In this document: in pieces, positions 45,796 to 64,000 of the stretch | Position numbering within the stretch: the stretch's first letter is position 1 | How the letters are laid out: the number at the start of each line of letters is the position of its first letter | Assembly (NCBI GenBank): GCA_002269645.1 | Contig: NIVC01003901.1 | Location: forward strand, 44,624-108,623 | DNA: 64,000 nucleotides | Reading direction: 5' to 3' | DNA from: Macrostomum lignano | Taxonomy: Eukaryota | Notes under the pieces: generated by a model | Told to the model about the DNA's origin: nothing | Seen by the model: the letters and a program-made list of their open reading frames with translations, nothing else | Database searches by the model: none | Position numbers and translations under genes: made by a program

Positions 45796-46330
45796 ATTCT
45801 GGTGCTCCCTGAAATTTGCATCGATTTCTACGAATATGTGTCTGCTCATTTGAAGTTGAGCGAGTAGAGACATTTTTCATGTTGGTTCAGCAACTAAGCC
45901 GATATTGCAGTCAAGTTGCTTTTGTAATTCACGATTTGAAACATTCGCAATCCCCGAGATCATGATCGAAACAGAATATTTTCGACATCTCGTCCGACCT
46001 CTACTGCTCATGGAGACGCAGGGAAGTTTGGGGTTCGATTGCTTGTTACCCAATGTAAAGCTATGGGAAAGCAGCTGACGTCATTGCTGGATCTACTAGC
46101 GTATGCCATTTTAACACAGCAGTCCAGCGGATTTCTCGACTGTAAGCTTCTAGGCGTCTCCCAAAAGTGAGATTCGAGTTCAGATTAGTGAAATTCGTCA
46201 GGACCGGCTTCTGAGTTCCTACGGGCTTAGCATCTGATTTTAACCACAGTGCCAGGAGGACACGCACGCTCGAGGTTCCATTTAACTAGCCAGACTAGCC
46301 ATGATAAATAATACGCTTCACATTCTCCTC

Positions 46331-46835
46331 GTGTTACTCCAATGTGATTGTCCAGTGTGTTACTCCAATGTGATTGTCCAGTGTGTTACTCCAATGTGAT
46401 TGTCCAGTGTGTTACTCCAATGTGATTGTCCAGTGTGTTACTCCAATGTGATTGTCCAGTGTGTTACTCCAATGTGATTGTCCAGTGTGTTACTCCAATG
46501 TGATTGTCCAGTGTGTTACTCCAATGTGATTGTCCAGTGTGTTACTCCAATGTGATTGTCCAGTGTGTTACTCCAATGTGATTGTCCAGTGTGTTACTCC
46601 AATGTGATTGTCCAGTGTGTTACTCCAATGTGATTGTCCAGTGTGTTACTCCAATGTGATTGTCCAGTGTGTTACTCCAATGTGATTGTCCAGTGTGTTA
46701 CTCCAATGTGATTGTCCAGTGTGTTACTCCAATGTGATTGTCCAGTGTGTTACTCCAATGTGATTGTCCAGTGTGTTACTCCAATGTGATTGTCCAGTGT
46801 GTTACTCCAATGTGATTGTCCAGTGTGTTACTCCA
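46331..46835. repeat. Perfect 26-bp tandem repeat (GTGTTACTCCAATGTGATTGTCCAGT)
   Basis: About 19 identical copies, no spacers. Confidence 0.97.
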
Positions 46836-47033
46836 CTCTGATGGCGACATCTGCGCGCCAATTGAGATCCAGCTCAATCGTATTTCATCTGTAACTCTTT
46901 CGTTCTCACTAAATCAATCAGTATCCCACTATTAAAGAAACAATCTGTCCTAGGGGAGCGGCATTGGGTCAGGTGTCGCAGTTGACTTCTCGGAGGTTCT
47001 TCCAATTGGTCAATGCGTCTATGTACGAGTCTC

Positions 47034-47718
47034 CTACCTATGGATAAGAGGGATGAGACCTGCAGTCGCGTGATCAGGGTGGTCAAGGCAGAGCGGCTCA
47101 GTGGTAAAATAAACGCATCTGGTTTCCGACCACGACCCGGCGAGAAAGCGGATGGAAAGTCTTACCTGCTGTTCGGCGCTCAGAGCAAAGTTGCACCGTG
47201 TTGGATGTTCGATTCTGTGTCGAATTCTATCTATTAGGCTTGAAAGCTGGATCTCGTTAAGTCTAAAACGCATAGCACTCTCGGCTGGATCTTCTTCAAA
47301 AAAATTTATTCTTGCCTTAAATTGTCGATGGCGTCTATCATTGACTCCTTCCTCATCAGAATCCGATTCGCTGTCCGAAAACATTATAATCCTAGCTTGT
47401 CTAAGAGTGAAAATTGGCCCTTGAACTCTTGCTTAGGAGTCAAGAGTTAGGAGCGAAATTTTCTCATTCTATAGAACACGCGCTCCTAGAATCACTCCTA
47501 AAAGCCAACTCCTAGCTCCTAGACTTCCTCTCCTAATTCTATAGCATGCCACGGACCTTAATGAGTTCTCCTAAATTCACCCAGTAGTCTCCTAACGTCC
47601 TTAAGGAGCCTCCTAGCTTTTAAAATTTACTCTTTATTCTATAGCACAGAAAAGCCAGCTAAGAGTTAGGACACTATTAAGGATTTAGGAGTTAAGAGTA
47701 TTCTATAGCACGGGCCCC
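47034..47718 (-). mobile_element. Truncated PIF/Harbinger element (5' end and transposase N-terminus)
   Basis: FRLNEIQLSSLIDRIRHRIEHPTRCNFALSAEQQVRLSIRFLAG matches the HARBI1-type N-terminus. Terminus GGGGCCCGTGCTATAGAA at 47701-47718, with subterminal TTCTATAG repeats. Confidence 0.75.
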
Positions 47719-48393
47719 TTTAAAAAAGCCAATGCCGCGATATGGTGCTAGGCAGGCATAAAAAATAACTCAAAGGGCCGCTTGCACTTAGCAGGGCCGA
47801 CTTATATATTTGGCTATGACTAATTGCGTAATAAATCAATTATTGAAGTGAATGGTTGGCTGTGCGTACTTGTACGGGGCAGTGATAGCGCCGGACTAAG
47901 TGAGCGAGAGAGAGAGAGGAGGCAGATGTACACTGCCCCACAGACTCCTGGTTCGCTTCTGTGCGCAGCCACATTAATTTGAGGCTTGTGCGCAAAAATT
48001 AGCTTTAAGGATTGTCGTGCGATTCACAGCCATGAGAGCCGACCCCCCGAGGCTTAAAGTGTGACTATTGGCAATTCGGGACCGCTGTACATCCTGCATG
48101 AGTGCGTGCCTGCGTACAGCATTAGCGCGCTTGTACGAGTATGTGTTCAAGAGTCAGCGGAATGTGCAGAATTGCCTCACCGCCGGTGATGGGGAGTAGT
48201 AGGGGAAATGTGGACTCTGCCGCAGGAATTTCCGTGGGAAAACCACGGGCCTGTAGTGTGTAAACATAGCGCCTATGTAAATGCATTGGTGGACTCTGCC
48301 GCAGGGAAAGCCATGGAAATTCCATGGGGCCTTAGTGAGAGAACATAGGCCTATGTTTTTCTATTGCTGTATGTCTGCTGCAGTGGTTTAGTC

Positions 48394-48401
48394 TATATAA
48401 G
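48394..48401 (+). promoter_or_regulatory. TATA box (TATATAAG) upstream of the PC4-like gene
   Basis: Canonical motif ~80 nt before the ATG at 48479. Confidence 0.55.
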
Positions 48402-48478
48402 GACCAAAAAATCTCTTTGATTCATGAAAAAACGATTTTTTTTTCGACGAGATAGTTTATTCTGTTAGATTTTAAGTC

Positions 48479-49243
48479 ATGGACATCGGCGAAGGATATA
48501 AACTCCAAATACAGGAGTATGAAGGAGTTATGTTCATTGCTATCAGAAAATTTTACCGACATGGCAGCACTGCGAGTTTGAAACCTGGAGTCCCCGGCTT
48601 CAATTTGAACATCCGTCAGTGGGAGAAGCTCAAGGAGTTGAAGCGATCGCTTGTCAAGGCGGCCTTGGACAAACAGCCAAAGGTTGTCAAACTCGGCTTC
48701 GATAAGTTCATCGAAGTGAAAAACGGCATTATCTGGTTAAAGCGATTGCCGGAGGACTGCTGCGACGAGTTTCTTAAGCGGAACACCGTGCCGCTGACAC
48801 CGCCGCTGTGGCGAAAGCTGTGGCAGTACGCGGATTGGATCGACGAGCAGCTATCGGCTCCACGTGAGATTTCCGATGCATACGAGCTGGAGTCGGGATC
48901 TTCCTCCAACAGCATCGAAAATGAAGACGATGCTGGCGAAAACGCGGAAGAGACCAAGCCGGTAGTGAAGGCGGAGGACAATGCTCCTGCTGCTGCTGGC
49001 GAGGCTGGCATGCCATCCAATCTGCAAATCGACACAGCGTTTGCCACTTCAACGCCTCTGCAACTGACCAAGCCAGCAGCTGGAGCGATTCCTCGGCAGG
49101 ACACTGATCTGCAAGAGGACCCAGTCTGGTACCAATTCCGAGCTCAAGCAGCCGCCGCTGAGAACGCCAGGAAACGCAAGCAGCCGCCGTTCGCTCTGCG
49201 CAGATTGGATGCCATGAAGCTGCCCAGGCCGTGCTTCGACTGA
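48479..49243 (+). CDS. PC4/Sub1-like ssDNA-binding protein, probably two tandem PC4 domains plus an acidic tail
   Basis: IQEYEGVMFIAIRKFY...LKPGVPGFNLNIRQWEKLKE matches PC4 (..DIR.Y...KPG.KGISL...QW..L). A second degenerate copy reads LGFDKFIEV...TVPLTPPLWRKL. AATAAA at 49323-49328. Confidence 0.82.
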   Translation: MDIGEGYKLQIQEYEGVMFIAIRKFYRHGSTASLKPGVPGFNLNIRQWEKLKELKRSLVKAALDKQPKVVKLGFDKFIEVKNGIIWLKRLPEDCCDEFLKRNTVPLTPPLWRKLWQYADWIDEQLSAPREISDAYELESGSSSNSIENEDDAGENAEETKPVVKAEDNAPAAAGEAGMPSNLQIDTAFATSTPLQLTKPAAGAIPRQDTDLQEDPVWYQFRAQAAAAENARKRKQPPFALRRLDAMKLPRPCFD

Positions 49244-49411
49244 TTGCAGACCCTCTGACATTGAGACAAACTCTGTGCTACGAGCTTTTTATCCAGACCT
49301 GCTTTCCATCTCTTTGTTTGAAAATAAAAAATATATGCTTGCTTTCACATGCGCTATACATTTTCAATGTCTTAAGAAAACCTAAAAAAAAATGTTTCTT
49401 TGTTTCTGAAA

Positions 49412-50479
49412 ATGGAAAAAATTTATTTCAATCCAAATCAGCCTGCGAGCTATTGCAGTTCTTCAAAACTGCAACATGAACTGCGAAAAAGAGGCGAGCA
49501 TATTGGAGTCAAGAGCATTGAGCAGTGGCTAAGTCAGCAGCCAGTACACACTCTGCATAAGCCAGCTAGAGTACGATTTCCAAGGGCGCCAATAATAGTG
49601 AGGGCCATTGATGATCAGTGGGAGATGGATCTGGTGGAAATGATTCCGTTTGCAAAGTATAATCGCGGGCATAAATACATTCTCACCTGCATTGATGTTT
49701 TGTCTAAATTTGCAATGGCCCGAGCACTGAAGTCTAAGAGCGCGGCAGAAGTGAAATCTGCGTTTGAGAGCATGCTGAAGAGCTCAAAGCGGCAGCCGCG
49801 CACTGTCCGCACAGATCAGGGAAAAGAGTTTGTCAACGCAATTTTTCGCCAGTTCTGCATAGACCGGGGGATTCTGGCGTTTCCAACTAGCAGTGAGCAC
49901 AAAGCAGCCATAATTGAAAGATGGAATCGAACTTTAAAAAGCAAGATGTGGCGTTACTTTACTCACAACAGCACTCTACAATGGCTTGATGTGCTGCCTA
50001 AACTGGTCAAGTCCTATAACAATACTTTCCACAGAAGCATCAAGACTACACTAATGAATGTCAGCAAAGCAAACGAGACTGAAGTGTGGATGAACCTTTA
50101 TGATGGGAAAGCGATTGAGACAGTTGAGAAACTGAGAAAACCGAAGTTCTGTGAAAACCAATCAGTGCGGATTTCCAATGCACCCAGACTCTTCAGGAAG
50201 GGATACAAGGCGAACTGGAGCGAGGAGGTGTACACCATAGTGTTTAGGGCACCAAAGCATTATCCCTACATGTACAGGATTCGAGACATGAAGGGGGAAG
50301 ACATAAGAGGCCTCTTCCACGAGCATGAGCTGCAAGCTGTTCCGGACTCGCAGCGGCTGTATGTAATCGAGAAGGTTCTGAAGACTGAGAAGCGGAAGGG
50401 TAAGATCCGATATCTCGTCAAGTGGGCCGGCTACAAGTCCACTGACTGGGTGGATGAGAAGGACTTAAGAAAAGTGTAA
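49412..50479 (+). CDS. Polinton retroviral-like (rve) integrase with C-terminal chromodomain
   Basis: Intact DDE triad (QWEMDL, RTDQGKEF, AIIERWNRTLK); KGYKANWSEEVY region; chromodomain YVIEKVL...YLVKWAGY. First ATG at 49412. Confidence 0.95.
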   Translation: MEKIYFNPNQPASYCSSSKLQHELRKRGEHIGVKSIEQWLSQQPVHTLHKPARVRFPRAPIIVRAIDDQWEMDLVEMIPFAKYNRGHKYILTCIDVLSKFAMARALKSKSAAEVKSAFESMLKSSKRQPRTVRTDQGKEFVNAIFRQFCIDRGILAFPTSSEHKAAIIERWNRTLKSKMWRYFTHNSTLQWLDVLPKLVKSYNNTFHRSIKTTLMNVSKANETEVWMNLYDGKAIETVEKLRKPKFCENQSVRISNAPRLFRKGYKANWSEEVYTIVFRAPKHYPYMYRIRDMKGEDIRGLFHEHELQAVPDSQRLYVIEKVLKTEKRKGKIRYLVKWAGYKSTDWVDEKDLRKV

Positions 50480-50509
50480 GATACCGACATTGTGCAGCCA
50501 TTCCCAACT

Positions 50510-51319
50510 ATGAGAAGCATCATCATTTGTAGCGAAAATGCTGAAGGTACTCCTAGTGACTTTCATTTTCACCTGCCTTCACCTATTTACTTGGATCGAA
50601 ATGTGGACTATGAGGCAGGTCTGGCTGAAATCCATCTGCCTGCTGCATGGTTCAATGTTGACGAGCCTTACTGCTTCACTGTCTCAGATGGAAGAGAGCA
50701 TGAGGCCCTGGTTCTTCAACCCGGACGCTTTGCTAGAGTGGAGGAACTGGTTGAGCGCATGAATGAGCTGCTGGCCAACTCTGAGTCACTGTTCTTCGAT
50801 GCAATGAGCGAAAGGGAGTCTGAAATGGAAGCTGATGAGTCCGGTTTAATGGGGCGAAGCAGCGCTAGAGATATTGGCATAAAGTTTGAAATCCAAGAGT
50901 TGAGAACGGTAGTGCTCAACAACACGGCTCGAGCAGAATTGTTCCTTCCATCAAGTAAAATTCTGCAGTGGCTGGGATTCGGAAACCAGCCTGTGAAGAT
51001 CCCACCCGGACGGCAAGTGTCACTCTGCTGCATCGGTTGTCCGCCCACCAACCTGATCAACTTGCACTGCAGCATTGTGGAGCGAACAAACTGTAACTGG
51101 AACTCCGTGCTGCGAACTGTGAGCATGTCATCCGATGTCGAATGGGGCAGCTACATGAGCAAAGTGTTTAAGAAAGCAATTTTCTTCCCGATTCAGAAAG
51201 CTAATTTTCTACATGGCATTAGATTTCAACTGCGTGACATCTTTGGCTACTCACTGACTGCTCGGAGCAGCAGCCCTGTTCTGCTCACAGTTCATATTCG
51301 GGAAAGGCTAATACAATGA
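50510..51319 (+). CDS. Minor capsid protein (penton)
   Basis: SDFHFHLPSPIYLD..YEAGLAEIHLPAAWFNV N-terminus and C-terminal IRFQLRDIFG..L....P..LTVH pattern; Polinton gene context. Confidence 0.8.
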   Translation: MRSIIICSENAEGTPSDFHFHLPSPIYLDRNVDYEAGLAEIHLPAAWFNVDEPYCFTVSDGREHEALVLQPGRFARVEELVERMNELLANSESLFFDAMSERESEMEADESGLMGRSSARDIGIKFEIQELRTVVLNNTARAELFLPSSKILQWLGFGNQPVKIPPGRQVSLCCIGCPPTNLINLHCSIVERTNCNWNSVLRTVSMSSDVEWGSYMSKVFKKAIFFPIQKANFLHGIRFQLRDIFGYSLTARSSSPVLLTVHIRERLIQ

Positions 51320-51726
51320 ACTACCAACAGCTGATTCGTCAGTATTCAGGGACTCTGGCAGGAAGCCAAAAGCCGGCGCTCTATGGCTGTGGGAGTTTTC
51401 CAGGAATCATGACTTACCAGCCTCCTCCAGAAGCTTCCACAAAGTCAATATCGCTATCAAAGCCAGCCCATACCACCGCCAGCGGTAGCAGCAGCAACAG
51501 CAGAAGCAATAGAAACAGACCAAAGCAGCGACTAGTCAAACAGGGCAGTAAGAAGCAGACAAAAAAGAAGAAAAAGAGTAAGACGGAGAAATCACCGAAA
51601 AGAAGCCAGTCAGGGCGAAATAAACCTAAGAAAGGGAGGTCTAAAACTCAAAGCAAGAAAACAGGCAAAGGAAAGCAAAAAGTGAGCAAAAAGACTGTGA
51701 AACGTGTTCTGGACTCGCTCTCATAG
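51316..51726 (+). CDS. Basic Lys/Arg/Ser-rich putative virion core (DNA-condensing) protein
   Basis: Lies between penton and MCP with an ATGA overlap. Very basic C-terminal half; LYGC|G fits an adenain cleavage consensus. Confidence 0.65.
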   Translation: MNYQQLIRQYSGTLAGSQKPALYGCGSFPGIMTYQPPPEASTKSISLSKPAHTTASGSSSNSRSNRNRPKQRLVKQGSKKQTKKKKKSKTEKSPKRSQSGRNKPKKGRSKTQSKKTGKGKQKVSKKTVKRVLDSLS

Positions 51727-51728
51727 CA

Positions 51729-53011
51729 ATGGCTTACGGATTCAACCCGAGACTCGATTTGTTCAAGTCCCCCATGCTGCAGACTGCCATTGAAAAATCC
51801 ACATATGTTGATATTCACCCCGTGAACTCTATTGCTACTAACTCACCTATTGAATTCGACTGTCATCCATCGGCTGATGAGTACACTGATCTGCTGAGCT
51901 CATTCCTGTATATTCGCTGTCGCCTAGTCCGGCTTGGCGGGGCTTTGATGAGGGAGGAGGTTCGAAATGCCGATGGAGTTGTCACTGAGCGCAGAGACAG
52001 TGGGGTGCACCCAGAAAACTTTGTCCTGTCTACGGCATTCTCAGATGTAATCGTGAGCATCAACCAGCGCATTGTCTCAGGCGGAGACCAGCTCTACCCC
52101 TACCATGCCTACCTAAAAGCTCTCATGGGCTCATCCGATGCTCAGCAGTTAAAGTTCTACCCCGCCGGATTCCTGGAACCCGAAACTGCTGCTGAGGGGC
52201 ATGCCGAGAGACACCGGGAGTCCCGCTGGGTGGAGTATGCGGGACCACTGCTCAGCGACATCTTCCAGTGTCCTGTTCTGCTGCTGAACAATTTACACCT
52301 GCACATCAAGCTGATGCCCAGTGATGCTGCATTCGCCATTCGAACCCCAGATGATAACAACACAGCCTACCGAATGGAAATCTCCCACTGCATTCTGAAC
52401 CTGCGCCGAGTCAAAGTGGCGCCTCACATCAGCCTGGCGCATGAGCAGGGACTGACCAATCAGAACGCACTCTACCCCATCGAGCGAACCGAAATGCAAA
52501 ACTTTATTCTACCCCAGGGAATTCAGTCAAAAAACATTGAAGGATTCACCCATGGCAAACTGCCGAAGTTCGTTATGCTGGTCTTCGTGAACCACCGAGC
52601 CTTCAATGGCCATCACCATTCCAGCCCTTCGAGTTCCAGAGCTTCAACCTCAGCCAGCTAGCACTAAAGAAAGGTGGTGAAGCCATGTGCCACGCTGCAT
52701 TTGCACCTGAGAATAATTCATTCGTGAGAGAGTACTTGCACTACCTGAAAAGCTGTCAGTCAGCCAGCCCTAGCAACTCGGTTCCGTGGGTCCCCTACCA
52801 GTTGTTCTCCAACGGCAACACAGCTTTCGCATTCGATCTCACGCCTGAGGGAGCGGCCCTGTGGTACGGACAGAAGGAGGGCAATTTGCGGCTGGAGATT
52901 CGCTTCCGACAGGCCCTGGAGGAGCCTGTATCTCTGATTGTTATGTGCCTGTATGACTCACTGATTGAGGTCACCAAGCACAGGGAGATTCTGTTAGATT
53001 TTCCATCCTAG
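51729..53011 (+). CDS. Major capsid protein (double jelly-roll), one -1 frameshift at ~52625-52627
   Basis: LDLFKSPMLQTAIEKSTYVDIHP...PIEF...YTDL..SFLYIRCRL is typical of Polinton MCPs. Adding one C restores SPFEFQSFNLSQL...TAFAFDLTP...GNLRLEIRF...VSLIV, giving 427 aa. Confidence 0.88.
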
Positions 53012-53034
53012 GAGTACGCTGGCGCAACGCTAAT

Positions 53035-53553
53035 ATGGATGCTTTTCAACTGCTTAAACTGGCTAAAAGCTTTTTGCCACAAAATAACTATTTAATTATT
53101 GTCTTGAATTCAATAAATAAAACATCTTATGCTTTAAACTTTATTCAGCGAGCAACTCTCAAAAGAAATTTATCTCGATGTAAGTTTATTTTCTTTCTGC
53201 TTCAGTACAGCTCATCCTTCGGTCACTGGGTGGTTTGTTATGCTGATAAGGAGAATTCCATAGAACTCTTTAACTCTCTGGGCTGGGACTCCAGCACTTT
53301 AGAGATCATTCACAGAGCACTGAAATCCTTTTGGTATTCTCCATTCTACTTACGTAGCAATGTGAATCGAATTCAGAGCTGTGACTCTGCTAAATGCGGT
53401 TTGTTCTGTCTCTTGTTTGCCTATCAAAAGTTTCGTTTCAAGCGCTCGTTTGAGTGGGTTCTGCGGCACCTCCATGCAAATCAGCAGAGCCACTTGAATG
53501 AGAGAATGCTGCAAAGGTTTGAGAGTTGCTTAAGAAAAAAGAAATTTAATTAG
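53035..53553 (+). CDS. Adenain-like cysteine maturation protease
   Basis: GHWV (His), FNSLG (normally FDS.G), IQS (oxyanion Gln), KCGLFC (Cys). Confidence 0.85.
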   Translation: MDAFQLLKLAKSFLPQNNYLIIVLNSINKTSYALNFIQRATLKRNLSRCKFIFFLLQYSSSFGHWVVCYADKENSIELFNSLGWDSSTLEIIHRALKSFWYSPFYLRSNVNRIQSCDSAKCGLFCLLFAYQKFRFKRSFEWVLRHLHANQQSHLNERMLQRFESCLRKKKFN

Positions 53554-53586
53554 ACTTTCAAAATTAGGGATTTAGCTCAACAGGCG

Positions 53587-54240
53587 ATGGAAACACGTGA
53601 GCGGATAAACTGTTATGATGTGCGCCTGCGACAGGGAAGCTGCATGATTGTCAGCGGGCCTACAAATGCAGGAAAGACAACCTTCGTGAAACATCTGATA
53701 CAATACAAGGATGTCCTGTTTGATGTGAAGCCTGGGAGAGTTCTGTGGTACTACGGGATTTCACAAGCAGCACACTCTGAGCTCAGCAGTCTCGGCGTGC
53801 ACCTGCAGCAGGGATTTCCCAGCAGTATCGAGACCGCACTGAGACCCAATGACCTGGTTGTATTTGATGACCTGATTGAAGAAACTTCCAATTCTGCTGC
53901 AATGCGAAATGTTTTCACTGGAATTGCCCATCATTTGCCCTGCTTTCTGGTTATGCTCACCCAAAATGTATTTTTTAAAGGGAAGGAGTTGCGAACAATG
54001 AGTCTGAATGCGATGTACTTTGTGATCATGAAGAACCCCAGAGACCAGCTGCAGATTGCAGCGCTGGGCAGGCAGTGCTTTGCTGAGAAGCCCGGATTTC
54101 TGCTGTCAGTGTTCAAGCACGTGACATCGCACGGCAGGGGAGCCTACCTGCTCCTGGATTTTCACCCTTCCACCCCTGATGAGCTGCGCGTCCGGGCTCG
54201 AATCCTGCCCAATCAGCGACCCCACCTGGTTTACACTTAA
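53587..54240 (+). CDS. A32/FtsK-like genome packaging ATPase
   Basis: Walker A GPTNAGKT, Walker B LVVFDD, HH..QN.F...RTMSLNA.Y...KNPRD. Confidence 0.93.
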   Translation: METRERINCYDVRLRQGSCMIVSGPTNAGKTTFVKHLIQYKDVLFDVKPGRVLWYYGISQAAHSELSSLGVHLQQGFPSSIETALRPNDLVVFDDLIEETSNSAAMRNVFTGIAHHLPCFLVMLTQNVFFKGKELRTMSLNAMYFVIMKNPRDQLQIAALGRQCFAEKPGFLLSVFKHVTSHGRGAYLLLDFHPSTPDELRVRARILPNQRPHLVYT

Positions 54241-54287
54241 GAATAACAGCCGAGATTTCGCCATTTGCTCTATATTCTGCAACACTA

Positions 54288-54605
54288 ATGATAATGGAAA
54301 CATTTGACTCTCATGAAAGTTTGTTTGATGTTCTCGCGTCACCGAAATATTCCATCAGCTTTAAACGTCTGTTGATCAGAGCGGGTCCAAAAGCCGTACG
54401 TGAATTTCTCATTGAGGCCTGCTACAACCTATTGCAAAACACTCTGTCGTTCTCACTCACTGAAAAGGCAGCGCTGGTGAAGCAAAAGCAAATAATCCGC
54501 AAAATTTCTACACATAGAAGAACTGCGGATCTGCTAAATACGGGTTTTATCAAAATTCTCTACATTCTAATAAAGCTAGTGAAGAAAAAGAAGCAAAATG
54601 AATAA
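54288..54605 (+). CDS. Small basic Polinton protein, function unknown
   Basis: IEACYNLLQN...KAALVKQKQIIRKIS resembles a small gene recurrent next to the ATPase in animal Polintons (from memory, unverified). Confidence 0.6.
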   Translation: MIMETFDSHESLFDVLASPKYSISFKRLLIRAGPKAVREFLIEACYNLLQNTLSFSLTEKAALVKQKQIIRKISTHRRTADLLNTGFIKILYILIKLVKKKKQNE

Positions 54606-55320
54606 GTTCTCAGAAATGGTTCTGATCCCCAAGTCAGAGTACGACATGCTCACACAGAATTTGAAGCCAGTCGAGTCTGAAATGGACACTGCTGTGAGAT
54701 ATGCGCAGAGGAAATGCAATGATATTTTGCTTGCCGAGGATTGCCCAGACGATGTGAAAGCTGCCATGTACCATGATGCGATGAAGAGTTTGCTGGTCAA
54801 GCGCAAGCGGACTGGAAAGGATGGTGCGGTACCTGCGAGTGATGCAAAGATGCTGAAAACAGATATTGCACCAAGCAGCTGGGGGGAAAAGATCACCCAA
54901 TCCGTGCCGCAGAAGTTTAAAGCGAGAGCCCGCAGTCTATGGGCCATCCTATCTGGCAATCCCTCTCTGATTCGGGTGTCCGAAAATGGCGAGGCGCAAA
55001 TTTCTGGGAAGACAATACCCTCCTCAAACATTCTGGATTTGTTTCACAGTGCGGTGAGGGATTCGAAATGTGCCAACGAGCCGGTAGGCTGGAGTGAGTT
55101 TGTCTCATTGCTTCAAGACAAAAAGCTTAACATCCCAGCTTCGGCTATAGGAAAGTCAGTAAGGCAGCTAATTTCTAAACCGGCTGTTTCTCCAGAGGCC
55201 ACCCCTGCACATCATACAGTTAAGGGATTCGGGAGTGAGAGAGCCTGGCTACACCTGAGCAGGAAAAAAAACTATTTAAGAAGGGGAACTGAGTCGGCTT
55301 CCCGACATCTTGCGTCTTGA
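54598..55320 (+). CDS. Conserved uncharacterised Polinton protein
   Basis: NGE..ISGKTIPSSNILDL....R....PVGWSEF...L...NIP.S.IG pattern is recurrent in animal Polintons; overlaps the upstream stop. Confidence 0.7.
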   Translation: MNKFSEMVLIPKSEYDMLTQNLKPVESEMDTAVRYAQRKCNDILLAEDCPDDVKAAMYHDAMKSLLVKRKRTGKDGAVPASDAKMLKTDIAPSSWGEKITQSVPQKFKARARSLWAILSGNPSLIRVSENGEAQISGKTIPSSNILDLFHSAVRDSKCANEPVGWSEFVSLLQDKKLNIPASAIGKSVRQLISKPAVSPEATPAHHTVKGFGSERAWLHLSRKKNYLRRGTESASRHLAS

Positions 55321-55332
55321 AACCATCCGATC

Positions 55333-56178
55333 ATGAACTATATTGACTTCCAAGGCTTCCCACGCGAGAGATCGAGCAGAGATTTCGTTGTGAAGGAGCT
55401 GGCCATTGCCCAAGTCCGGGCTGGCAGTTACCATATCACTCATCACGTGTACGCCTCTCCGTTCTCATGGGACAGAATCTCACCTGAGATGCAAGTACAT
55501 TACAGAAAGCTCTCAAAGAATTTGCATCATTTCAAGTGGACAGATGGATCCCGACCGTACATGCATTTGGCTAATGACATTCTAAACATTGCTTACGGTC
55601 CCACCTGGACAAGCGGGGTGAAAAAGTCCATCTTTCTGACTGAGCTGCTTGGCAGACAGGTGTACAACCTAGAGGATCTGGGATCACCTTTGATTCAAGC
55701 ATCTGATACTGGTTGTGCAGTGAAAAATGTATTACTGTACTACAACTGGCTGAAACCGAAGTTCTGTATCAACTTAAGAAGCGAGGTGTGCCCGCACCAC
55801 TCAAAAGCTCGCAAAGACAGCACCACTGACAGAAAGGACTCTCTAAATGAGTACACCTGCGACAGCCCTGCGAGTGACCAATCTGGTCGGCGGCGTGGAT
55901 CTGAGACTTGCTGGAGACAGGGGTGCCCAGTTGCCTCTGCGGGAACTGGCTCTCAGCATGGCTCATGTCATCTATCGCCCCGTCTGGCCCCGAGTGCTTA
56001 TCAAGAGGATGCGGAGTCCCAGAGTGACTCTATTGCTCTATCCGACTGGACAACTGAGTATCTGTGGCGCCCGGAGCTACTCGGCCTCAGTCAGGGCCGC
56101 TCGTCGCTTCGTGGCTATGCTGCATCGCAGAGTGCCTGCTCAACTGCTGCCTCATCAAACTGTGCATGTGCGGATTAA
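55333..56178 (+). CDS. DEDD/RNase T-like 3'-5' exonuclease-fold protein; C-terminal ~110 aa overlap the TBP-like ORF and may be non-functional
   Basis: N-terminal YIDFQGF......FVVKELA, HHFKW..G and CAVKNV..YYNW motifs. Confidence 0.6.
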   Translation: MNYIDFQGFPRERSSRDFVVKELAIAQVRAGSYHITHHVYASPFSWDRISPEMQVHYRKLSKNLHHFKWTDGSRPYMHLANDILNIAYGPTWTSGVKKSIFLTELLGRQVYNLEDLGSPLIQASDTGCAVKNVLLYYNWLKPKFCINLRSEVCPHHSKARKDSTTDRKDSLNEYTCDSPASDQSGRRRGSETCWRQGCPVASAGTGSQHGSCHLSPRLAPSAYQEDAESQSDSIALSDWTTEYLWRPELLGLSQGRSSLRGYAASQSACSTAASSNCACAD

Positions 56179-56410
56179 AACTATTACTGCGCATGGGAAA
56201 ATTGACTTGTGCAGAGCACTTCCCCTCGCTAATCTTGTGAACACTTTACCAAATGCTCAATATGAGCCAGAGTCATTTTCTGCTTTGATCTGCAAACTAA
56301 GCTTCTGCAAATGCCTGCTTTTTCACAATGGCTCATTCGTTCTCAGTGGTGCAAAAACAATGAGCATGCTAATTTCCGACTTTTCCTTGCTTGTCCGTTT
56401 TCTGTGCTAA
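55847..56410 (+). CDS. Divergent TATA-box-binding protein (TBP)-like protein, core only, 187 aa
   Basis: Two TBP repeats: LRVTNLVG...YRPVWPRVLIKRMRSPRVTLLLYPTGQLSICGAR and VRIKTITA...YEPESFSALICKL..CKCLLFHNGSFVLSGAK. Confidence 0.88.
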   Translation: MSTPATALRVTNLVGGVDLRLAGDRGAQLPLRELALSMAHVIYRPVWPRVLIKRMRSPRVTLLLYPTGQLSICGARSYSASVRAARRFVAMLHRRVPAQLLPHQTVHVRIKTITAHGKIDLCRALPLANLVNTLPNAQYEPESFSALICKLSFCKCLLFHNGSFVLSGAKTMSMLISDFSLLVRFLC

Positions 56411-56431
56411 TAATAACCATATGTTTCAACA

Positions 56432-56556
56432 ATTAAATAAAAAGACGACAGCTGAACAAAAATATAATAATCTTGCATGCATATACCACGTATTAAGATG
56501 CGTGCATTTTAATCAATATACCTGAAAATCAGACTTCGATCGACTTTTTCTTTATT
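56432..56556. terminator. Convergent polyadenylation signals
   Basis: ATTAAA/AATAAA (+) at 56432-56441 after the TBP-like stop; AATAAA (-) at 56551-56556 downstream of polB; AT-rich spacer. Confidence 0.55.
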
Positions 56557-57125
56557 TTCATAACTGAAATCGCAATATTAGTTTGAGTATAGAAAATTTA
56601 ATCAGACCACAACCAACTCAAGAAAAAAAGCACACCCATCACTCAGATTATGCACTGCTAAGACAAATAAAAACGAACAAGAACTAGCAGAAATGAAAAA
56701 GGAAGCAATATTTTTCAGATAATCATTGGATAATGGTTACAAAAAATATGAGTAGCAAAGCTAGCAAAGATAAAAAAAGGACAGTAACTCAGTTCATTCA
56801 ATTGTGCAAAAATTCAAGGATAATAAAAAAGGGAAAGCCAGACCAATATGCCGCAAATTATTCCAACATGGCTTTCACAAGTTCGTATTGAAATAAATCT
56901 GGAACAACTCAACTCGAAAATGTTACGTCAGTTAGTTGCTTAGAGACTACAAATATGTAACTAACTGAATTGGCTCTATTCGTTCCAGCATTGTCATTAT
57001 CATCATCATCCATCATTATCATCATCATCATCATTCAGATTAATTAAACCACTGAAACAATTCATGGAGTACATAAGTAAAAGTCAATAAATTTCAACGC
57101 CAAGGTTACACAGATGTGCAAAGCA

Positions 57126-60100
57126 TCACTCTAAGCAGTCCGCTGTCCTTTTCGGACTACCCCTGATTAACAGCTGAAAGTGGCCGAACGGAAGACTTGA
57201 GTTCGAGCCAGTCCACGCTCGCTTGTCCTCCCAGATACTGAGAGCGAGCTTACGTTGCTCAATGGTGAAAACGCGATGTTTCTCACTTCCAATTCGACGA
57301 ACAGTGAGCGACAGCTTTGAAGCCCCCTTGAAAATCTTGACGTAGTCGTCGTGGGAGACTTCATTCTTCAGCACGCTTCGTTGGATGCCTTTTGCTTTTG
57401 CTTTGCATGCCGCCGAGCTTTCAGCGAGGAAAGAATAGAGCTTGGGCCTTAGCAGCACCCACTCAATCTGTTGCAGTCCACCAGCTTCATCTTTAATGCA
57501 GCCTAGCTTGGCCTTTAGCCGATTCGAGAAGAGAGGATGATTAGTGAAAAAATTGGAGGTGTCCAAGAGGCCTTCGGCATGCAGGATTGGCAGCACTTCT
57601 CTCTGCAAACTAAGGTTCTCTAAGCTCAAAAACAACGAGTCTGTATCGCCACCGCAAACTCGAACTCTTGCTCCATCACGGAATTCTAGCATGGGTTTTA
57701 TTTTGTCATAGTAAAGTCGATACATGATGATCTTGGAGCGATCTAGAACACACTGCCCCATGAAATTGGGCGATCAAGAGTTACTTCGCGCTTTTGAAGC
57801 TCAAAGATGCTGAGTGACGGCGTAATGATTGTGAATGATGCGACATTTGGTTGAGAAGAAACAGTCTTGGCTTTTTTCTTGTCAGTACACACTCTGATGT
57901 CCCGCCGCTTGCGCACGTTCTCCATTGTTTTGCCAAACAGGGAGTTATTTTTCAGTTTATAGAAATCCTTCTCGAAATCATTTTTCGCCATAGAGCGCTT
58001 CTCGCTATTCATCTTAATGTAGTCCGCGAAGACAGGTTCTTGCCTGAATTCGATCATCCTGTGGAGCCCATGCAACTTCATTCCGTGCGATAGATAGAAT
58101 CGGAGAGCAGACGAGTGCAGTACATAGGAAAACTTGTTGTGGCATGTGAGCATTAATTTTTGTACTCCACGGTAGCGCGCAACGGTAGGATTCTCAGTCG
58201 TGTTCGCGTCGGGCTGCTGCTGCTGATGATGATGAGAATGATCATTGTCATGTTGAAGCAGTACCCATAATTCTCGCATGTACTGCGGAAATTCTTCAAA
58301 ATTCGGACACCTTTTCTCTGGGGCGAATGGAAGATCCTCCGTTGCCGTGTGGATTTCGGCTGGGTAGAGCAAATCCGCTTCGACAAGGTAGCCGATTGGA
58401 GCGTCATCATCCAGGGAAAGAAAGCGGCACTCGGACCAGGAGCACAGCTCCTCTTGACTGAGCCAGCGAAAGCCGCCAACAGGTAGGGGCATTGTGAGCG
58501 CATGACCATAAAGGTTATTAGCATCAACAGCCAGTAAACTCCTACCTGCTGGTTCATTATCATCATCACTACTTTCGCTCTGGACATGATGTACATTGAC
58601 AAAAGACATTCCACCCCGAATTCCTTTCTCAAACATTTTATACATCTCGAGGTCAGTTAGCAGTTCGATCTTGACTTGAGAAGACTTTAGTGCAGAAGCG
58701 AATGATAGCCTGGAGTTGACACAAAATGCACCGGATCTAGCTTGTCTTCCTGCAAACTCAGCCTTCGAAACCCTTCAAAGATATCTGCTAGTTGCCTGAT
58801 GTCCAGCTCCAAGTAGCAGAGCATGTAATCGCGCAATGTTGTAGATTCGAATTCAGTCCAGGCCTTCTGCGCATGCCGATACTCCGCCTCGGTACAGTGG
58901 CTGTTGGTGAGTCGGTTAAAAAAGCTTTCTACTTTTGGTAGTTGGCGATCATCAAGCACATTCAAATTCGAGAGATAATCATACGGGAAAACTCCCTTAC
59001 TAAACAGTACATCGCTTGAGAGATTTGGATACTTTGATCGCATCGCATTAGTGATGGGGCAGTTGTCCTCCGGCAAGTTCTTAATAAGTTGAGAGAGACT
59101 GCTGTGTAGGAATTGCAGTGAGTCGATGAATTGTAGCGTGAAAAACAGGGGCTTTTTTACGCCATCTTTCTCATACTCATCAATCTGGAACTCGACCCTC
59201 ATGGAGAGGTACGACTCAGCAGTTTGGGGGATGACGCTCACCCTCCAACCAGTCATGTCACCCAGCGCAGTTGAGAAAATCAAATGCAGGTCATATCCGC
59301 GAAGATTGTGGAAAACTATTGGCAAAAATCGCCGTTTCAGCCGAGCAAGCTTGTTACACGAAGCGCAGGCAGCACCCTTGTATTCACCGCTGAGGTGGTC
59401 GTGATCCCAGTGCTTGTCAGAAGATGAAATGAACACTGCATTGCATAAATAGCACTGTGTGGCATCTTGAAAGCTGCGCCTGTTGTCATCACTGTTTCTG
59501 TCAGCAATCTGATGACTAAACTCGGTATTCCAACCATAAACTTCACGAGCAAGACGTTCGAGTGAGGCCAAAAACTGTTTCACGACAGAATTCGGATTGG
59601 GTCCGCTGCAGAGGAAAACATCCTCACTCGGCCTCAGAATTTTGCTGCTCATACCCTCTCTTGGAATAACAATGTAGCCAGCAGCTACAGGTACATGCTC
59701 AGTTAACTTGGTGACAGTAACTTCTCTTTCAGGCTCACTGGTTCACGTGGGGTGTTCAGAGCTTCAAAATCTGCGTAGACAACAAATGGGGGACTGATTG
59801 TCTTTTCCCAAGCCATGAACTGCATTGTGTTGCTACTTGCATCAGGCATGCGCTCCATGATGGCTGGTTTCAGTTGAGGATTGCAGCTGTCTCGATGCTG
59901 CTCCAACTCTTCCTGGAATCGAAACGGAGAAATGCACTTCTCACACCATTTGCGATTCCTCAGACCTTTTTTGCTGTTCAGGAGCCGGTCCAGGTTCGAA
60001 ACTGCACACCAGTGTCCAGTCCCACAATTCTCATCACCACCATCATCATCATCAGCATCATCGGAGCTGGAGTTGCGAAGCAAGAGTAGAGGAATAACCT

Positions 60101-60879
60101 TGCGAGAGGCACAAATCCCAGGAAGAGGCTGGCGAATGACATAGGCCTCATCATCTTCCCAGCTAAAAACTGTGAAACAGATTTCGGAATTCTTTTCCTC
60201 TATAACGTCTAAATCGGAAATTGCGACTGGTAGTGCGATGCCGCTCAGATCGATTTCATCCAACCATCTGCTGTAAGTTGTTAGTCGATGGCAAGACTTC
60301 ATCACACCTGGATCTCTGATGTGCAGGTAAGCGAGACAGGCAAACAGAAAGCAATTGTTTCCATCGCTCGGTGGGTTGATTATGGCCTTCTTAACGGCCA
60401 GCTGATTGGGCAAAGAAAAATTCGCGCATCGTCCACGATAGTAGCGAATGCGATCAGTGAGGGCAGAGCACAGATCAAAATAGTTGATTTGCTCAACTAT
60501 CCAACCGCTCCCATTTGAATTGTAGGCATCAATCTTGCGTTCCAGCTCAGAAAACTGCTGCAACCACCACAATTCAAAATCTCTTAGATCAGAGAGAAGC
60601 TCAAGACCGCATGCGATCCACTTATCTTCTGCATTGATTACCGCAGCTTCCTTGATTCTCACCATTCTATGTTGAACTTAAGCTGCGCTCGAATAGATTA
60701 TTCTCGGATGAATCGAATCTCATCTCAACAGCCTGTAGCACTGCAAACTTCGTTGATGATAAAAAATGAAATGGCTCGAGACCTCTTGATGCTGGAGTGA
60801 AGCGTCTGACCTGCAGCGTGTCATCATGCGCACTAGCGTGAATAGCCGAGCTGAATTGAATGCCTGCATGAATTAGCAT
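57126..60879 (-). CDS. polB: Protein-primed family B DNA polymerase (TP-like, vOTU-like, Zn finger, exonuclease with EndoVII-like insert, polymerase); five -1 frameshifts
   Basis: ExoI YADFE, ExoII HNLRGYD, ExoIII YLELD; motifs DANNLYG, KLKNNSLFGKTMEN, GDTDS and PKLY. Span 3754 + 5 nt = 1253 codons. Shifts at ~60692, 60665, 59742, 58709 and 57763. Confidence 0.93.
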
Positions 60880-60957
60880 GTTGTTGGGTGTACGCGTTTC
60901 ACTCGACAGTTAAAATTTATAAATCATAATCCTAATTCCACCTCATTATGGTGCGGG

Positions 60958-61407
60958 AATCGGTTAATCAGGAATCAGTGAATCGGGAATCGGCGAATCG
61001 GGAATCGGTGAATCAGGAATCGGCGAATCGGGAATCGTGAATCGGGAATCGGCGAATCGGGAATCGGTGAATCGGGAATCGGCGAATCGGGAATCGGTGA
61101 ATCGGGAATCGGCGAATCGGGAATCGGTGAATCGGGAATCGGCGAATCAGGAATCGGTGAATCGGAATCAGTGAATCGGGAATCGGGAATCAGTGAATCG
61201 GGAATCGGGAATCGGGAATCGGTGAATCGGCGAATCGGGAATCGGTGAATCGGGAATCGGTGAATCGGTGAATCGAGAATCAGTGAATCGGTGAATCGGC
61301 GAATCGGAATCGGTGAATCGGCGAATCGGTGAATCGGTGAATCGGGAATCAGTGAATCGGTGAATCGGTGAATCGGGAATCGGTGAATCGGCGAATCGGG
61401 AATCGGG
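60958..61407. repeat. GAATCGG-core 7-8-bp repeat array upstream of polB
   Basis: About 55-60 units of GAATCGG(T/C), GAATCAG and GGAATCG. Confidence 0.93.
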
Positions 61408-61428
61408 TTTCGTGACTACTTTTGCTTG

Positions 61429-61436
61429 TATTTATA
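61429..61436 (-). promoter_or_regulatory. TATA box (TATAAATA) facing polB
   Basis: Perfect consensus ~25 nt upstream of the repeat-array edge. Confidence 0.55.
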
Positions 61437-62180
61437 GAGGGAAGAGTCTACTTTACTGGCTTTACTAATCACATTGGATTGACTCACTGGTTGGTTCGAT
61501 TTCGATAGCAAAATTGGTAGACTCAAGCGGCCGATCACTTGCTGATGATGATGATGAAGTGTCTCTCGAAGAAGCCATCTCGGTTCGGTTGATGACACGG
61601 CTTAGAGCATTTTCGATGAGAATTAGAGGAGGAAATTTGCTGAAATACATATTTGTGAAATTATTTTTTCTTGCAAAAGTAAATTCAAATCCCTAATTTG
61701 TGGATATACGCTCGTATTAAGTGTACATATTTTCGAAAGTTGTACTTCGGGTCTTGTCGTTACGTGCCAAATTTCGGGGTCTCATAAAGGGTTTAATAAA
61801 AGGGTCTTATGAAACGAATTCTAAAAATTCAAAATAACTCAAAGCTGAAAACTTTTCCAAAATTCTGCGCTTCATTGCGCTTTAAAACTTATATTTTAAA
61901 AATGCAATGATACGCTACATTATTAGAAGCACAAGTTAAAGAAGGAGATTACAAACCCAACCAGAATCAAACCCAATCTGCATTCACACCCAAGCACAGC
62001 TTGCAATTGATCAACGCGCACTGCCTGCATAAATATGAACTTTAAAAATAGCAATGAGATGTTGAAAAGAAAAATAAACATTATTCACTTTTTCAATATA
62101 CGGATAATCATCTCGCAATTTAATTCAACACAAATGTTGCTAAATTAATATTTAACGACTGGTACATTAGAATTATTAGT

Positions 62181-63166
62181 TTAGAATTGAGAATTGCTCA
62201 GGCGAATACGGAAAGCCCCTCCCAAGTCAATCCAATATTCACCCGTAACACTGTTGGGCAGAACCAGCTGGATGCAGAGAGGTGCTGGCTGCTGCACTTC
62301 ATTAGCGGCCGCAGGCTGAACCTCAGTCGGTGGTGGCGGTGGTGGAGGCGCAGGGCCTGAGTCCATATCGCGAATCAGGTCGGACAGGCTGACTTCGACC
62401 GCAGGCTGAACCTCAGTCGGTGGTGGCGGTGGTGGAGGCGCAGGGCCTGAGTCCATATCGCGAATCACGTCGGACAGGCTGACTTCTGCCAGCATCCTGG
62501 CACGCTCCATATTTTTTCCGGGAACAGGGATTGCACGCCGCTGCTGCTGCTGTTGCATTTCTTGCTGGCTCCTGTGCTTCAGGCTCACCATCGAGGTTCT
62601 CGAAGAAAGCGGTGTCCAGCTCATTCAGCTCGAAGTCAGGGGTGCCACCTCCATCAGCAGCATCAAGCAGGGGAGCTCCGACATCACCGTCGAGTAGAGC
62701 AGCAGAAGCAGCAGCAGGCTGGGCGTTGGGCTGGTCACCAGTGTTCGTTACTCGCCGCATAAGCTCGTGATAACTTGACTCAAAGTGCTCACCGGCTCTC
62801 GAATGCGTTCTGCCGCCTGTTGCGTTCCTCTTGACGTGCAACTTCCAGAGCAGTAATGCAAAGTGCTCACCGGCTCTCGAATGCGTTCTGCCGCCCTGTT
62901 GCGTTCCTCTTGACGTGCAACTTCCAGAGCAGTAATGCGTGCCTGCTCGCGGTCTTCAGCAGAGCTCCATTAACAGTCGAATGATTTTTATGCCTTTTTT
63001 TGGCCTCTAACGTGAAGAGCTCAACGGACTGGCATTCATGGCATAGTAGCCATCGGGTGACACTGCAGCCTTCATTCGCTACATGGTGCTTTAGTCCACC
63101 GAGCATACTAATATTGCAGGTGACACACACCTCATGAACGTAGGATGGGCACCGAGAATGGCTCAT
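62181..63166 (-). CDS. Frameshifted or overlapping ORF cluster: Cys/His Zn-binding N-terminus with LxCxE, charged helix, acidic segment, Gln-rich and polyproline repeats
   Basis: ORFs 62867-63166, 62413-62841 and 62181-62624. Contains a 78-bp duplication (62781-62937) and a 90-bp duplication (62311-62490). One gene or two is unresolved. Confidence 0.55.
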
Positions 63167-64000
63167 GGTTTAAAATTTAATCAAGGGTTTTTTGTGAAAA
63201 TTTGAAATTTCGAAGTCCGTTTAAATATCAACAAAATCTATTTTTAATGGCTCAGTAGAATTTTTCAGTCCTTATATCCAAATCACCAGGCAATATCGCC
63301 TATATACACACACAGATATGTTTACACGTTACATATGTGTATGCACTAATTATTTTCTTACCGTTATTGAGCATAATAATAATAAAACTGATAACATTCC
63401 CCCGTCGCGTGCATCAGTTAGTTTTAAAGACCTCCACCCCAGACCTGCACCCCACTTCCCCGCGGCCAAATCAGCAGTATCAAGAAAAACAATAACAAGG
63501 CAATAAACGGCGCTTTGCAAGCTCACTTTCACAACAAATTCAGTCCAATTTGCGAGACTCGTACAAAGTGCGGAGGAACTCATGAACATAGGCCTATGTA
63601 TTCCCACTGCCAACAAAGTTTAAATATTGTGGAGATCGGAAGCCAGGTTCACCCAATTCTCAATTAACTATGGCTAATGTACACTAGAGAAGTTTTTTAC
63701 TATTTTTAGAGAATCAGTTTTGGGCTTCCCAGGAACTTATGCTGCTTTCCCGCGCAGAGTCCACCAATCCATTTACATAGAGCTCTATTCGGCTTTTCAT
63801 TGAAGATCGAGTAGGAAAATGAAAGCGTCAAATTTTTCTATTTTTGTCTAATTAGCTTAATTACTTCTCAAAGGATAAAAACATGTTTCATTTAAAATCT
63901 AGAAACTAGTATTCTTTTGAAATGTTTGAAATGTTATTTCAAATTCGTCCTTTCGTTTCTATAGAAATACGATAAAAGATCGAGAAAATTTCTCGAACCA

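Follow-up and report, generated by a model that had tools for sequence, protein, structure and literature searches.

A young multicopy Polinton of Macrostomum lignano with a TBP-like gene of its own, frame breaks that are most likely assembly errors and a likely two-step gene programme

The 64,000-nucleotide stretch of Macrostomum lignano contig NIVC01003901.1 analysed here (the window) contains one insertion of a recently multiplied Polinton family. The reading that we consider probable is that of a young multicopy Polinton of the Maverick/adintovirus type, in which the frame breaks are most likely errors of the assembly and the genes likely follow a two-step programme that uses the element's own TBP. 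The TBP-like gene, the PC4-like gene and a recurrent upstream motif go beyond the initial annotation of this DNA, which had described a possibly intact, virion-competent endogenous virus.

The element starts at 48195 with the AGTAGTAG terminus of a 135-bp TIR, so that 47907-48194, which had been included in an earlier span of 47907..63800, is host flank. It also runs on past 63800 and past the window: the contig stops at window position 64000, with about 270 bases of the element still to come, hence no right TIR is present in the window, and the right end of this insertion is on another contig. Full-length stretches of the family measure 16.2 and 16.5 kb, with TIRs of 135 bp. A count of copies and of their divergence, which had been proposed as a check, gave at least 22 insertions that are about 99% alike and carry 6-bp target duplications, consistent with a young family. 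Among seven testable single stretches the target duplication is exact in five and has one mismatch in two; that of the window insertion, read from both of its contigs, also has one mismatch. All eight stretches that have both TIRs show 2-4 substitutions between the left and the right one, and for that reason TIR divergence is unusable for dating.

The initial annotation had found all morphogenesis and replication genes in place, and this holds for the core genes, whose catalytic words are conserved in almost all family stretches where they can be read (Table 1). An MCP, a likely minor capsid protein, ATPase, protease, integrase, pPolB, TIRs and target duplications were all found, which places the element among the Polinton/Maverick group (Polintoviricetes). 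The predicted structure of the first 294 residues of the MCP (pLDDT 94) matches D13, PBCV-1 Vp54, the Sputnik MCP and the faustovirus capsid protein, with E of about 1e-7 to 1e-5 and TM of about 0.47. Atlas matches of the minor capsid candidate include a Sputnik V18/19 cluster, in which 26% of the members carry that Pfam annotation, the packaging ATPase has strong matches in seven related metagenome elements, and the Chromo match of the integrase (E 1.1e-4) is below the Pfam cut-off. The exonuclease and polymerase words of PolB are kept, and a second TATA word lies 557 bases upstream of its start. GGDTDS as PolB motif C, which had been listed as a caveat, is not a lesion and is the norm of the clade; it is present in 25/26 family readings and, among the PolB relatives in which motif C can be read, in 31/49, a test from which 74 metagenome readings retrieved by the GGDTDS word itself were excluded. 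Asn in place of Asp in the protease was likewise rejected as a lesion, being present in 25/25 family readings and in 6/6 of a second group. The ORF at 55333..56178 gives a weak lead to a Maelstrom-type nuclease fold (PF13017, Atlas 0.88, under the 0.9 line), and no fusogen was identified in the element. An identical fragment bears a database name that reads 'OTU domain-containing', which is a name alone.

Table 1. Features of the Polinton, in window coordinates
Feature	Position	Strand	Evidence or remark
Left TIR, 135 bp, AGTAGTAG terminus	48195..48329	+	Real element start
TATA word, canonical	48394..48400	+	85 bases upstream of first gene; presumed function
PC4-like protein, N-terminal coactivator/ssDNA-binding domain	48479..49243	+	Pfam PF02229 E 3.6e-6, above cut-off
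TTAAGAA	49372..49378	+	40 bases upstream of integrase start; kept in 25/26 stretches
Integrase, retroviral-type, open, C-terminal chromodomain	49412..50479	+	Pfam rve PF00665 E 2.6e-16; D-D-E words kept
TTAAGAA	50465..50471	+	45 bases upstream of minor capsid start; kept in 23/23
Likely minor capsid protein, open	50510..51319	+	Atlas matches 0.97 and gene position; a lead
TTAAGAA	51168..51174	+	148 bases upstream of basic core-like ORF; kept in 22/22
Lysine-rich ORF, likely DNA-condensing core protein	51316..51726	+	Suggested by composition; no Pfam family
MCP, double-jelly-roll type	51729..53011	+	One frame break near 52.6 kb in assembly; 3015 relatives
Maturation protease, adenain-type, open	53035..53553	+	Pfam PF00770 above cut-off; His, Asn, Cys words family-wide
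TTAAGAA	53530..53536	+	57 bases upstream of ATPase start; kept in 25/25
Packaging ATPase, A32-like, open	53587..54240	+	Position, Walker A/B words
TTAAGAA	54237..54243	+	57 bases upstream of 103-codon ORF; kept in 24/24
ORF of 103 codons, no assigned product	54294..54605	+	
ORF of 240 codons, no assigned product	54598..55320	+	Also in related elements
TTAAGAA	55276..55282	+	57 bases upstream of ORF 55333..56178; kept in 25/25
ORF, tail overlapping TBP gene	55333..56178	+	First ~170 aa match unnamed eukaryotic clusters, Atlas 0.97
TTAAGAA	55774..55780	+	73 bases upstream of TBP-like start; kept in 25/25
TBP-like protein, 187 aa, open	55847..56410	+	Pfam TBP E 4.5e-22
PolB, protein-primed, Endonuclease VII-like insertion, GGDTDS motif C	57126..60879	-	Five frame breaks in assembly; Pfam PF03175 (two pieces), PF02945
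TATA word	60915..60921	-	42 bases upstream of PolB start; presumed function
Tandem array, GAATCGG-type units	60954..61407	.	Differs between copies
Right-arm ORF with 90-bp repeats	62181..62955	-	Split by 79-bp duplication
Right sub-terminal region	62956..64000	.	Contig ends before right TIR

The TBP-like protein is modelled as a complete two-repeat saddle (pLDDT 92.8) with TM of about 0.8 to solved archaeal and eukaryotic TBPs, and is 26% identical to the host TBP. Canonical TBP has four DNA-intercalating phenylalanines; at the corresponding positions the element proteins have Pro (21/21), Phe or Tyr (20/21), Phe (21/21) and Phe (21/21), the window protein having Pro, Tyr, Phe and Phe. With its first repeat altered and its second conserved, the element protein is, judged from its sequence, a variant of TBP and not a canonical one. 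The Pfam cut-off for TBP is passed by 14/14 candidate ORFs of related metagenome elements, and the gene is present in all eight metagenome relative loci of at least 10 kb. Within the M. lignano genome there are more than 100 TBP-family matches, mostly element-borne, and six of the ten other Polinton families sampled have a TBP-like match; the stretches examined for the remaining four may end before the TBP gene, and no TBP-less Polinton control was found.

All seven sense-strand TTAAGAA sites (against 0.5-0.6 expected) lie 40-148 bases upstream of start codons, and thus 7/7 fall within 150 bases of a start, compared with a background of 20%. The word, first noticed post hoc, beats 300/300 shuffles as the best word. 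Sister families at 73% identity, which are not mutually independent, keep four to five of the seven sites, compared with 18% for any 7-mer; six of the seven sites are inside coding sequence, and protein constraint may therefore help to keep them. The motif is absent ahead of the protease and 240-codon genes, and the MCP has only a one-mismatch variant, 103 bases upstream. Other TBP subclades have upstream words of their own, TTAAGC and CATAAAC/ATAAAC. In five of eleven metagenome loci the word beats all 100 shuffles, while a significant upstream word is absent in the other six, including a 14.9-kb element with TBP; in other families of the M. lignano genome the best upstream words are weak (P 0.03-1.0).

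Aligned with the other copies over 11,428 coding columns, the window copy lacks a single base at exactly six places: once in the MCP, near 52.6 kb, and five times in PolB, near 57.8, 58.7 and 59.7 kb and twice near 60.7 kb. The earlier description of six -1 lesions without a nonsense codon thus stands (0 nonsense codons in the 12 genes scored), except that it had overlooked a 79-bp tandem duplication at 62781-62938. This duplication is seen in 0/9 other right arms, and the ORF that it splits spans 283-335 codons in seven of those nine. An extra base near 53.5 kb was rejected as a seventh lesion, as the protease frame is open and the contigs of two runs agree with the window. Programmed frameshifting or introns in PolB were also rejected, because the break positions vary by copy and one stretch can be read through for 1,262 codons.

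The breaks behave as assembly error rather than decay, as had been proposed, though the suggested cause, deletion in short base runs, accounts for them only in part, since single-base gaps follow polymorphic sites more than base runs. Across the family 106/261 such gaps fall on a polymorphic column, compared with a background of 1.3%, and five of the six in the window are at most one column away from such a column. Of the gaps off polymorphic columns, under half of the total, 35/119 are in runs of at least four bases, compared with 6%. The main source of error is likely the mixing of reads from near-identical copies, with run-length error second. The paired halves of single insertions differ at 158/169 coding indels; between the window and its duplicate contig, the host flank differs by about 72 substitutions and nine gap openings, and the element by one and about 12, respectively. 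The proposed short-read check found the longer state in at least one run at every one of the six sites, and at the MCP site in 4/4 runs, in contigs that pool all copies. The contrast drawn earlier with the adjacent P element also holds: the stop in its P-like transposase is common to all three homologous places and therefore looks real. In this assembly, a frameshift in a young multicopy element is accordingly not readable as decay.

Variants shared among copies comprise 73 non-synonymous and 108 synonymous changes (pN/pS 0.20), of which the MCP has five and 16, respectively, and the family is under purifying selection. PolB is open in one of 19 assembled stretches, and of the nine stretches that cover all 12 genes none is open throughout; the rate of the assembly would by itself give about 14 indels per copy. 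Two runs guessed to be RNA were considered as a source on transcription and set aside as uninformative, as their coverage includes non-coding parts.

These features would fit a two-step programme. Transcription of the PC4-like and PolB genes, the two with a canonical TATA, would begin with the TBP and Pol II of the host; the linear genome, once excised, would be copied by PolB from the TIRs. The element TBP would then bind TTAAGAA and bring in TFIIB and Pol II of the host at the genes for the integrase, capsid, core, ATPase and TBP, feeding back positively on its own gene; TBP and TFIIB are a textbook pair. Genomes would finally be packaged in capsids, and the integrase would insert new copies. 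The central step, activation of the late genes by the element TBP through a modified TATA box, is a likely one, predicted from protein and motif.

Three other readings bear on this picture. It is improbable that the window copy is truly broken, with some gaps or the 79-bp duplication real and only other insertions functional. The gap near 57.8 kb is common to 8/23 copies and two others to 4/24 and 2/23, as real changes might be; the MCP break is common to 0/19 other copies. Recurrent gaps lie on polymorphic columns, at which one run has two different longer states, and this argues against a true break. The contig that partners the window lacks 4/4 of the gaps it overlaps and lacks the duplication, while the MCP and 57.8-kb gaps lie outside the span of the partner contigs and the short-read contigs merge all copies. 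A possible reading, to which we give real weight while favouring the programme above, is that the family is a self-copying intracellular transposon, whose capsid genes serve intracellular packaging or have recently fallen idle, and which forms no infectious particle. At least seven insertions have large internal deletions, some removing the MCP or PolB, and no run is recorded as RNA, both as a transposon might show. Shared variants in the MCP, mCP and ATPase are strongly skewed towards synonymous changes, which argues against this reading, as does the recent exchange of the MCP-to-TBP block between two lineages with different PolBs, an exchange expected if the block is selected as a unit.

The motif itself may be a real late promoter read by a helper virus polymerase or a host factor, with the TBP-like protein having another task, such as serving as a decoy or acting at the TIRs; this we regard as unlikely. 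TAAG, the core of baculovirus-type late promoters, is within both TTAAGAA and TTAAGC. Some Polinton-like viruses depend on giant viruses, according to a recent report (10.64898/2026.06.19.733378). TBP-bearing relatives with CATAAAC/ATAAAC, however, have a word that lacks TAAG and resembles a TATA variant, and the TBP retains three intercalating aromatic residues and a conserved second repeat; both points count against this reading.

The element resembles Polintons, Mavericks and adintoviruses in its size of about 16 kb, AGT-ended TIRs, 6-bp target duplications, pPolB, rve integrase, ATPase, adenain-type protease, double-jelly-roll MCP and likely mCP, and differs from them in the TBP-like and PC4-like genes, GGDTDS motif C and repeated upstream TTAAGAA. 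A word search of Polinton papers and of a survey of protist endogenous viruses found no mention of TATA or TBP. A TBP-like gene had been labelled previously in a MELD virus, one of the midsize linear dsDNA viruses (Fig. 5 legend, non-animal datasets section of Starrett et al., PMC8502044); that section describes neither a promoter motif nor a clade-wide spread. In nematode Mavericks, too, virus-like genes stand open in the genome of an animal, and virions have been inferred, none having been seen; they carry a fusogen, which was not found in the flatworm element, and cargo genes, and the text of that paper mentions neither TATA nor TBP nor a promoter (10.1101/2022.07.12.499685).

The closest parallel for the proposed switch is the late system of beta- and gamma-herpesviruses, where, in the relevant passages of PMC6541308, TBP mimics (KSHV ORF24, EBV BcRF1 and HCMV UL87) act on TATT promoters. 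The flatworm element would likewise pair a viral TBP-like protein with a modified TATA box upstream of structural genes, both parts being present by sequence. Unlike the herpesvirus proteins, that of the element consists of no more than a 187-aa TBP core, clearly similar in sequence to cellular TBP, in an unrelated virus class, and none of the scanned element ORFs corresponds to the herpesvirus-like Pol II-binding extension or the five partner proteins.

None of the papers searched deals with how Polinton capsid genes are turned on, and one report states that a virion has been observed for no Maverick-Polinton (10.64898/2026.06.19.733378). The flatworm family offers a concrete candidate switch in a viral TBP and its predicted site. 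More tentatively, and at less than even confidence, the family may belong to a widespread undescribed Polinton clade (GG/AG-DTDS polymerase; the flatworm and 76 metagenome contigs) with its own TBP and a co-evolved TATA box specific to each sub-lineage (TTAAGAA, TTAAGC, CATAAAC), a minimal one-protein late switch convergent with that of herpesviruses, in elements that would still form virions in a laboratory animal. Pairs of TBP and motif that vary naturally in this way would show how TBP specificity can be rewired. A scan of viral contigs gave one weak match, which was set aside.

The element is a bona fide Polinton and a member of a young family. In the assembly (764 Mb in 5,269 contigs, with the window on contig NIVC01003901.1), a search with positions 47907-48450 gave family-copy matches beginning only at 48195, the start of a 135-bp terminal inverted repeat (TIR) opened by the AGTAGTAG terminus, so that the start at 47907 in the initial annotation is replaced by this position. 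The contig ends at window position 64000, ~270 bases short of the right end seen in other copies. A homologous place that lacks the element (C387) joins the left flank of the window directly to the right flank on contig C1698, so C1698 likely carries the right end of the insertion; the target duplication of this pair has one mismatch. Among 35 stretches selected from genome searches (~98–99% identical to the window), 6-bp target duplications are exact in five of the seven testable single stretches and have one mismatch in the other two, and where left and right halves lie on separate contigs, ten further pairs share an exact 6-mer and an eleventh matches at an offset of 3 bases. Counting copies and their divergence, a check proposed at the outset, thus gave at least 22 insertions from single stretches and paired halves, with a median of 8.1 substitutions per kb between unrelated pairs (425 pairs). 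Most insertions occur once in the assembly, against three occurrences for each of the host TBP-family genes, which fits recent insertion.

Internally deleted derivatives with both TIRs are found on C3033, C201/C2466, C2520, C84, C106, C109 and C356, one type lacking MCP and another PolB; separate insertions share identical deletion end points, so these non-autonomous forms have spread as well. Within the left TIR region (48210-48356), a 79-bp sub-terminal repeat has an inverted 27-bp echo at 63754-63780, ~470 bases inside the right end, and the two are possibly a replication or packaging signal.

Genes of the element and neighbouring features of the window
Feature	Window position	Strand	Details
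PC4-like, integrase with chromodomain, likely minor capsid protein (mCP), basic ORF, major capsid protein (MCP), protease		+	
ATPase, three unknown ORFs, TBP-like gene		+	
PolB		−	Endonuclease VII-like insertion
Right-arm ORF		−	
THAP-domain P-like transposase	39665-41266 and upstream	−	
Closely packed, distinct tandem arrays of short period	1-26500		periods 4-42
Long-armed inverted-repeat element, probably a non-autonomous DNA transposon	35813-38403		~170-bp blocks, 98-99% complementary; 194-bp internal repeat

The replication and morphogenesis genes first reported, with largely intact catalytic motifs, were recovered, and the catalytic words of the integrase, protease, ATPase and PolB hardly vary across the family. 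The first 294 residues of MCP (model pLDDT 94) match double-jelly-roll capsid proteins. The PolB motif had been read correctly as GGDTDS rather than YxDTDS, but it is not a defect: 31 of 49 relatives showing the motif have GGDTDS (51 were listed, two without it), the others carrying mostly AG, AC and similar small residues and only two a tyrosine. In related metagenome Polintons, an ORF (L165:16128-16553, L166:11098-11538) scores above the cut-off for adenovirus core protein X (PF05829).

The frame breaks of the window copy are very probably assembly errors. In a coding alignment of 36 stretches (273,982 coding bases), the window has the six single-base gaps originally noted, one in MCP (~52.6 kb) and five in PolB (~57.8, 58.7 and 59.7 kb, and two at ~60.7 kb), and one extra base; a 79-bp right-arm duplication is also peculiar to it. 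Across the stretches there are 261 one-base, 22 two-base and five longer gaps and 55 insertions, against 216 private substitutions, and such a high indel-to-substitution ratio is unlike ordinary decay. The initial annotation had described each lesion as repairable by lengthening a short run. Base runs are enriched among the 119 gaps lying away from polymorphic columns; 106 of the 261 one-base gaps fall exactly on a polymorphic column (minor base in at least three stretches; background 1.3%), and five of the six window gaps lie within one column of one. This pattern is that expected if the consensus was built from reads of near-identical copies.

Where one insertion is represented twice, as paired halves or as duplicates, the two versions differ at 158 of 169 coding indels (11 of 14 pairs, those with sufficient overlap). 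The partner contig of the window lacks all four PolB gaps that it overlaps, the MCP and 57.8-kb gaps lying outside this locus-level comparison, and has eight indels of its own. Between window 40761-50892 and the duplicate contig C4712, the 7.4 kb of host flank differ by ~1% (~72 substitutions, nine gap openings) and the 2.7 kb of element by one substitution and ~12 gap openings, a disparity that may reflect either a chimeric join or an insertion copied between homologues. In the read check, contigs from four of 24 listed runs were compared; each of the six sites shows the longer state in one run or more, the MCP site in all four, and among the 32 pieces listed none bridges a gap site without a gap, but these contigs pool all copies. 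Fixed deletions would be consistent with the recurrence of three window gaps in other stretches (8/23, 4/24 and 2/23); the indel excess, the discordant paired halves and the longer states in read contigs argue for error rather than decay. The adjacent P-like transposase differs, as first described: its stop looks real, being shared by the three homologous places, and the family is older, with 68–83% identity among other copies.

MCP is open in five of 20 stretches and PolB in one of 19, and of the nine stretches that cover the 12 genes from end to end, none is open throughout; at the observed assembly rate ~14 indels are expected per copy, too many for the assembly to decide on intactness. Shared variants have a pN/pS of 0.20 and one stop, a sign of purifying selection, and private variants 0.53 and eight stops. 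Judged from sequence, particle production by the family is conceivable, if somewhat doubtful.

The 187-aa TBP-like protein matches the Pfam TBP profile (E 4.5e-22) and 35 solved TBP sequences, its model superposes on TBPs (TM ~0.8), and it is 26% identical to host TBP. Searched for the TBP family, the genome gave 150 scored matches, of which over 100 are of the element type; the 15 checked loci with full context, ranked below host-type matches (L201-L215), all lie among element genes. A PolB-alignment scan of metagenomes gave 76 loci, with TBP-like ORFs in 11 by profile and in three more by position and size; all 14 pass the Pfam cut-off and cover all eight loci of at least 10 kb, many shorter loci ending before the position of the gene. 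All 21 element proteins have proline in place of the first intercalating phenylalanine; the other three positions are aromatic in 20, 21 and 21 of them. In cellular TBP the acidic stirrup of the second repeat contacts TFIIB, and the second repeat of the element proteins keeps the invariant residues. Two host proteins stand apart from the element proteins in a tree with no outgroup (support 94/90, unstarred), and the shared proline suggests a single origin of element TBPs.

Canonical TATA words precede only the PC4-like and PolB genes among 12 starts. TTAAGAA, first noticed post hoc, has seven sense-strand sites in the gene train, all 40–148 bases ahead of a start (background 20%, P ~1e-5), compared with 0.5–0.6 expected under Markov models (maximum four in 300); as a best-word statistic it exceeds 300 of 300 shuffles. 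Within the family, 169 of 170 site readings retain it. In held-out sisters at 72–77% identity (22 stretches, four with too few element genes), TTAAGAA is found ahead of the same genes and MCP and is nearly absent antisense, with none ahead of genes in one distant element of the set; eight aligned sisters keep four to five of the seven sites, against 18% for any 7-mer (P ~0.003, the eight counted as one test). TTAAGAA itself is not enriched in metagenome elements, where upstream words exceed all 100 shuffles in five of 11 loci and none is significant in the other six: one TBP subclade has TTAAGC (L165, L166; L171 at P 0.06) and another CATAAAC or ATAAAC (L117, L119, L131). Ten more distant families of the genome have at most one upstream TTAAGAA site each and weaker words such as TATAAGC; most have the TBP-like gene, so they provide no TBP-less negative control, and since kin share both traits, the pairing of motif and TBP lineage is no proof of co-evolution.

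We propose that host TBP would start the PC4-like and PolB genes, while the element TBP, itself behind the motif, would bind TTAAGAA and bring in TFIIB and Pol II of the host for the structural and integration genes. Capsids would then package genomes copied by PolB, and the integrase would make new insertions with 6-bp duplications. This scheme as a whole, built on anatomy, selection, fold and motif placement, is one we moderately favour.

What sets the element apart is the pair of TBP and motif, on an otherwise known Polinton type. Literature searches for Macrostomum gave one unrelated listing with Polinton and two with Maverick. A TBP-like gene is labelled in a figure legend on MELD viruses (accessible text of PMC8502044 and its preprint), with no match in one supplement file of PMC8502044. 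TATA and TBP are absent as words from the accessible portions of 10.1101/2023.08.22.554363, PMC11071308, 10.64898/2026.06.19.733378, PMC11131425, PMC10120064 and 10.1101/2022.07.12.499685; Repbase, subscription journals, figures and bioRxiv supplements may record the gene. The available text of 10.1101/2025.04.19.649669 describes Orthopolintovirales-related insertions in Rhabditophora, and that of PMC6541308 a herpesvirus precedent for a viral TBP with a modified promoter.

Further Polinton lineages are numerous in the genome (each search scored ~100 MCP matches, and many of these have frames open over 430–460 codons). In a second lineage (L091-L101, on C862, C130, C512 and C273), the MCP-to-TBP block is 93–98% identical to window 51795-56195, whereas PolB, the PC4-like gene and terminal regions reach only ~55–68%, which indicates that two polymerase lineages have recently exchanged the structural module.
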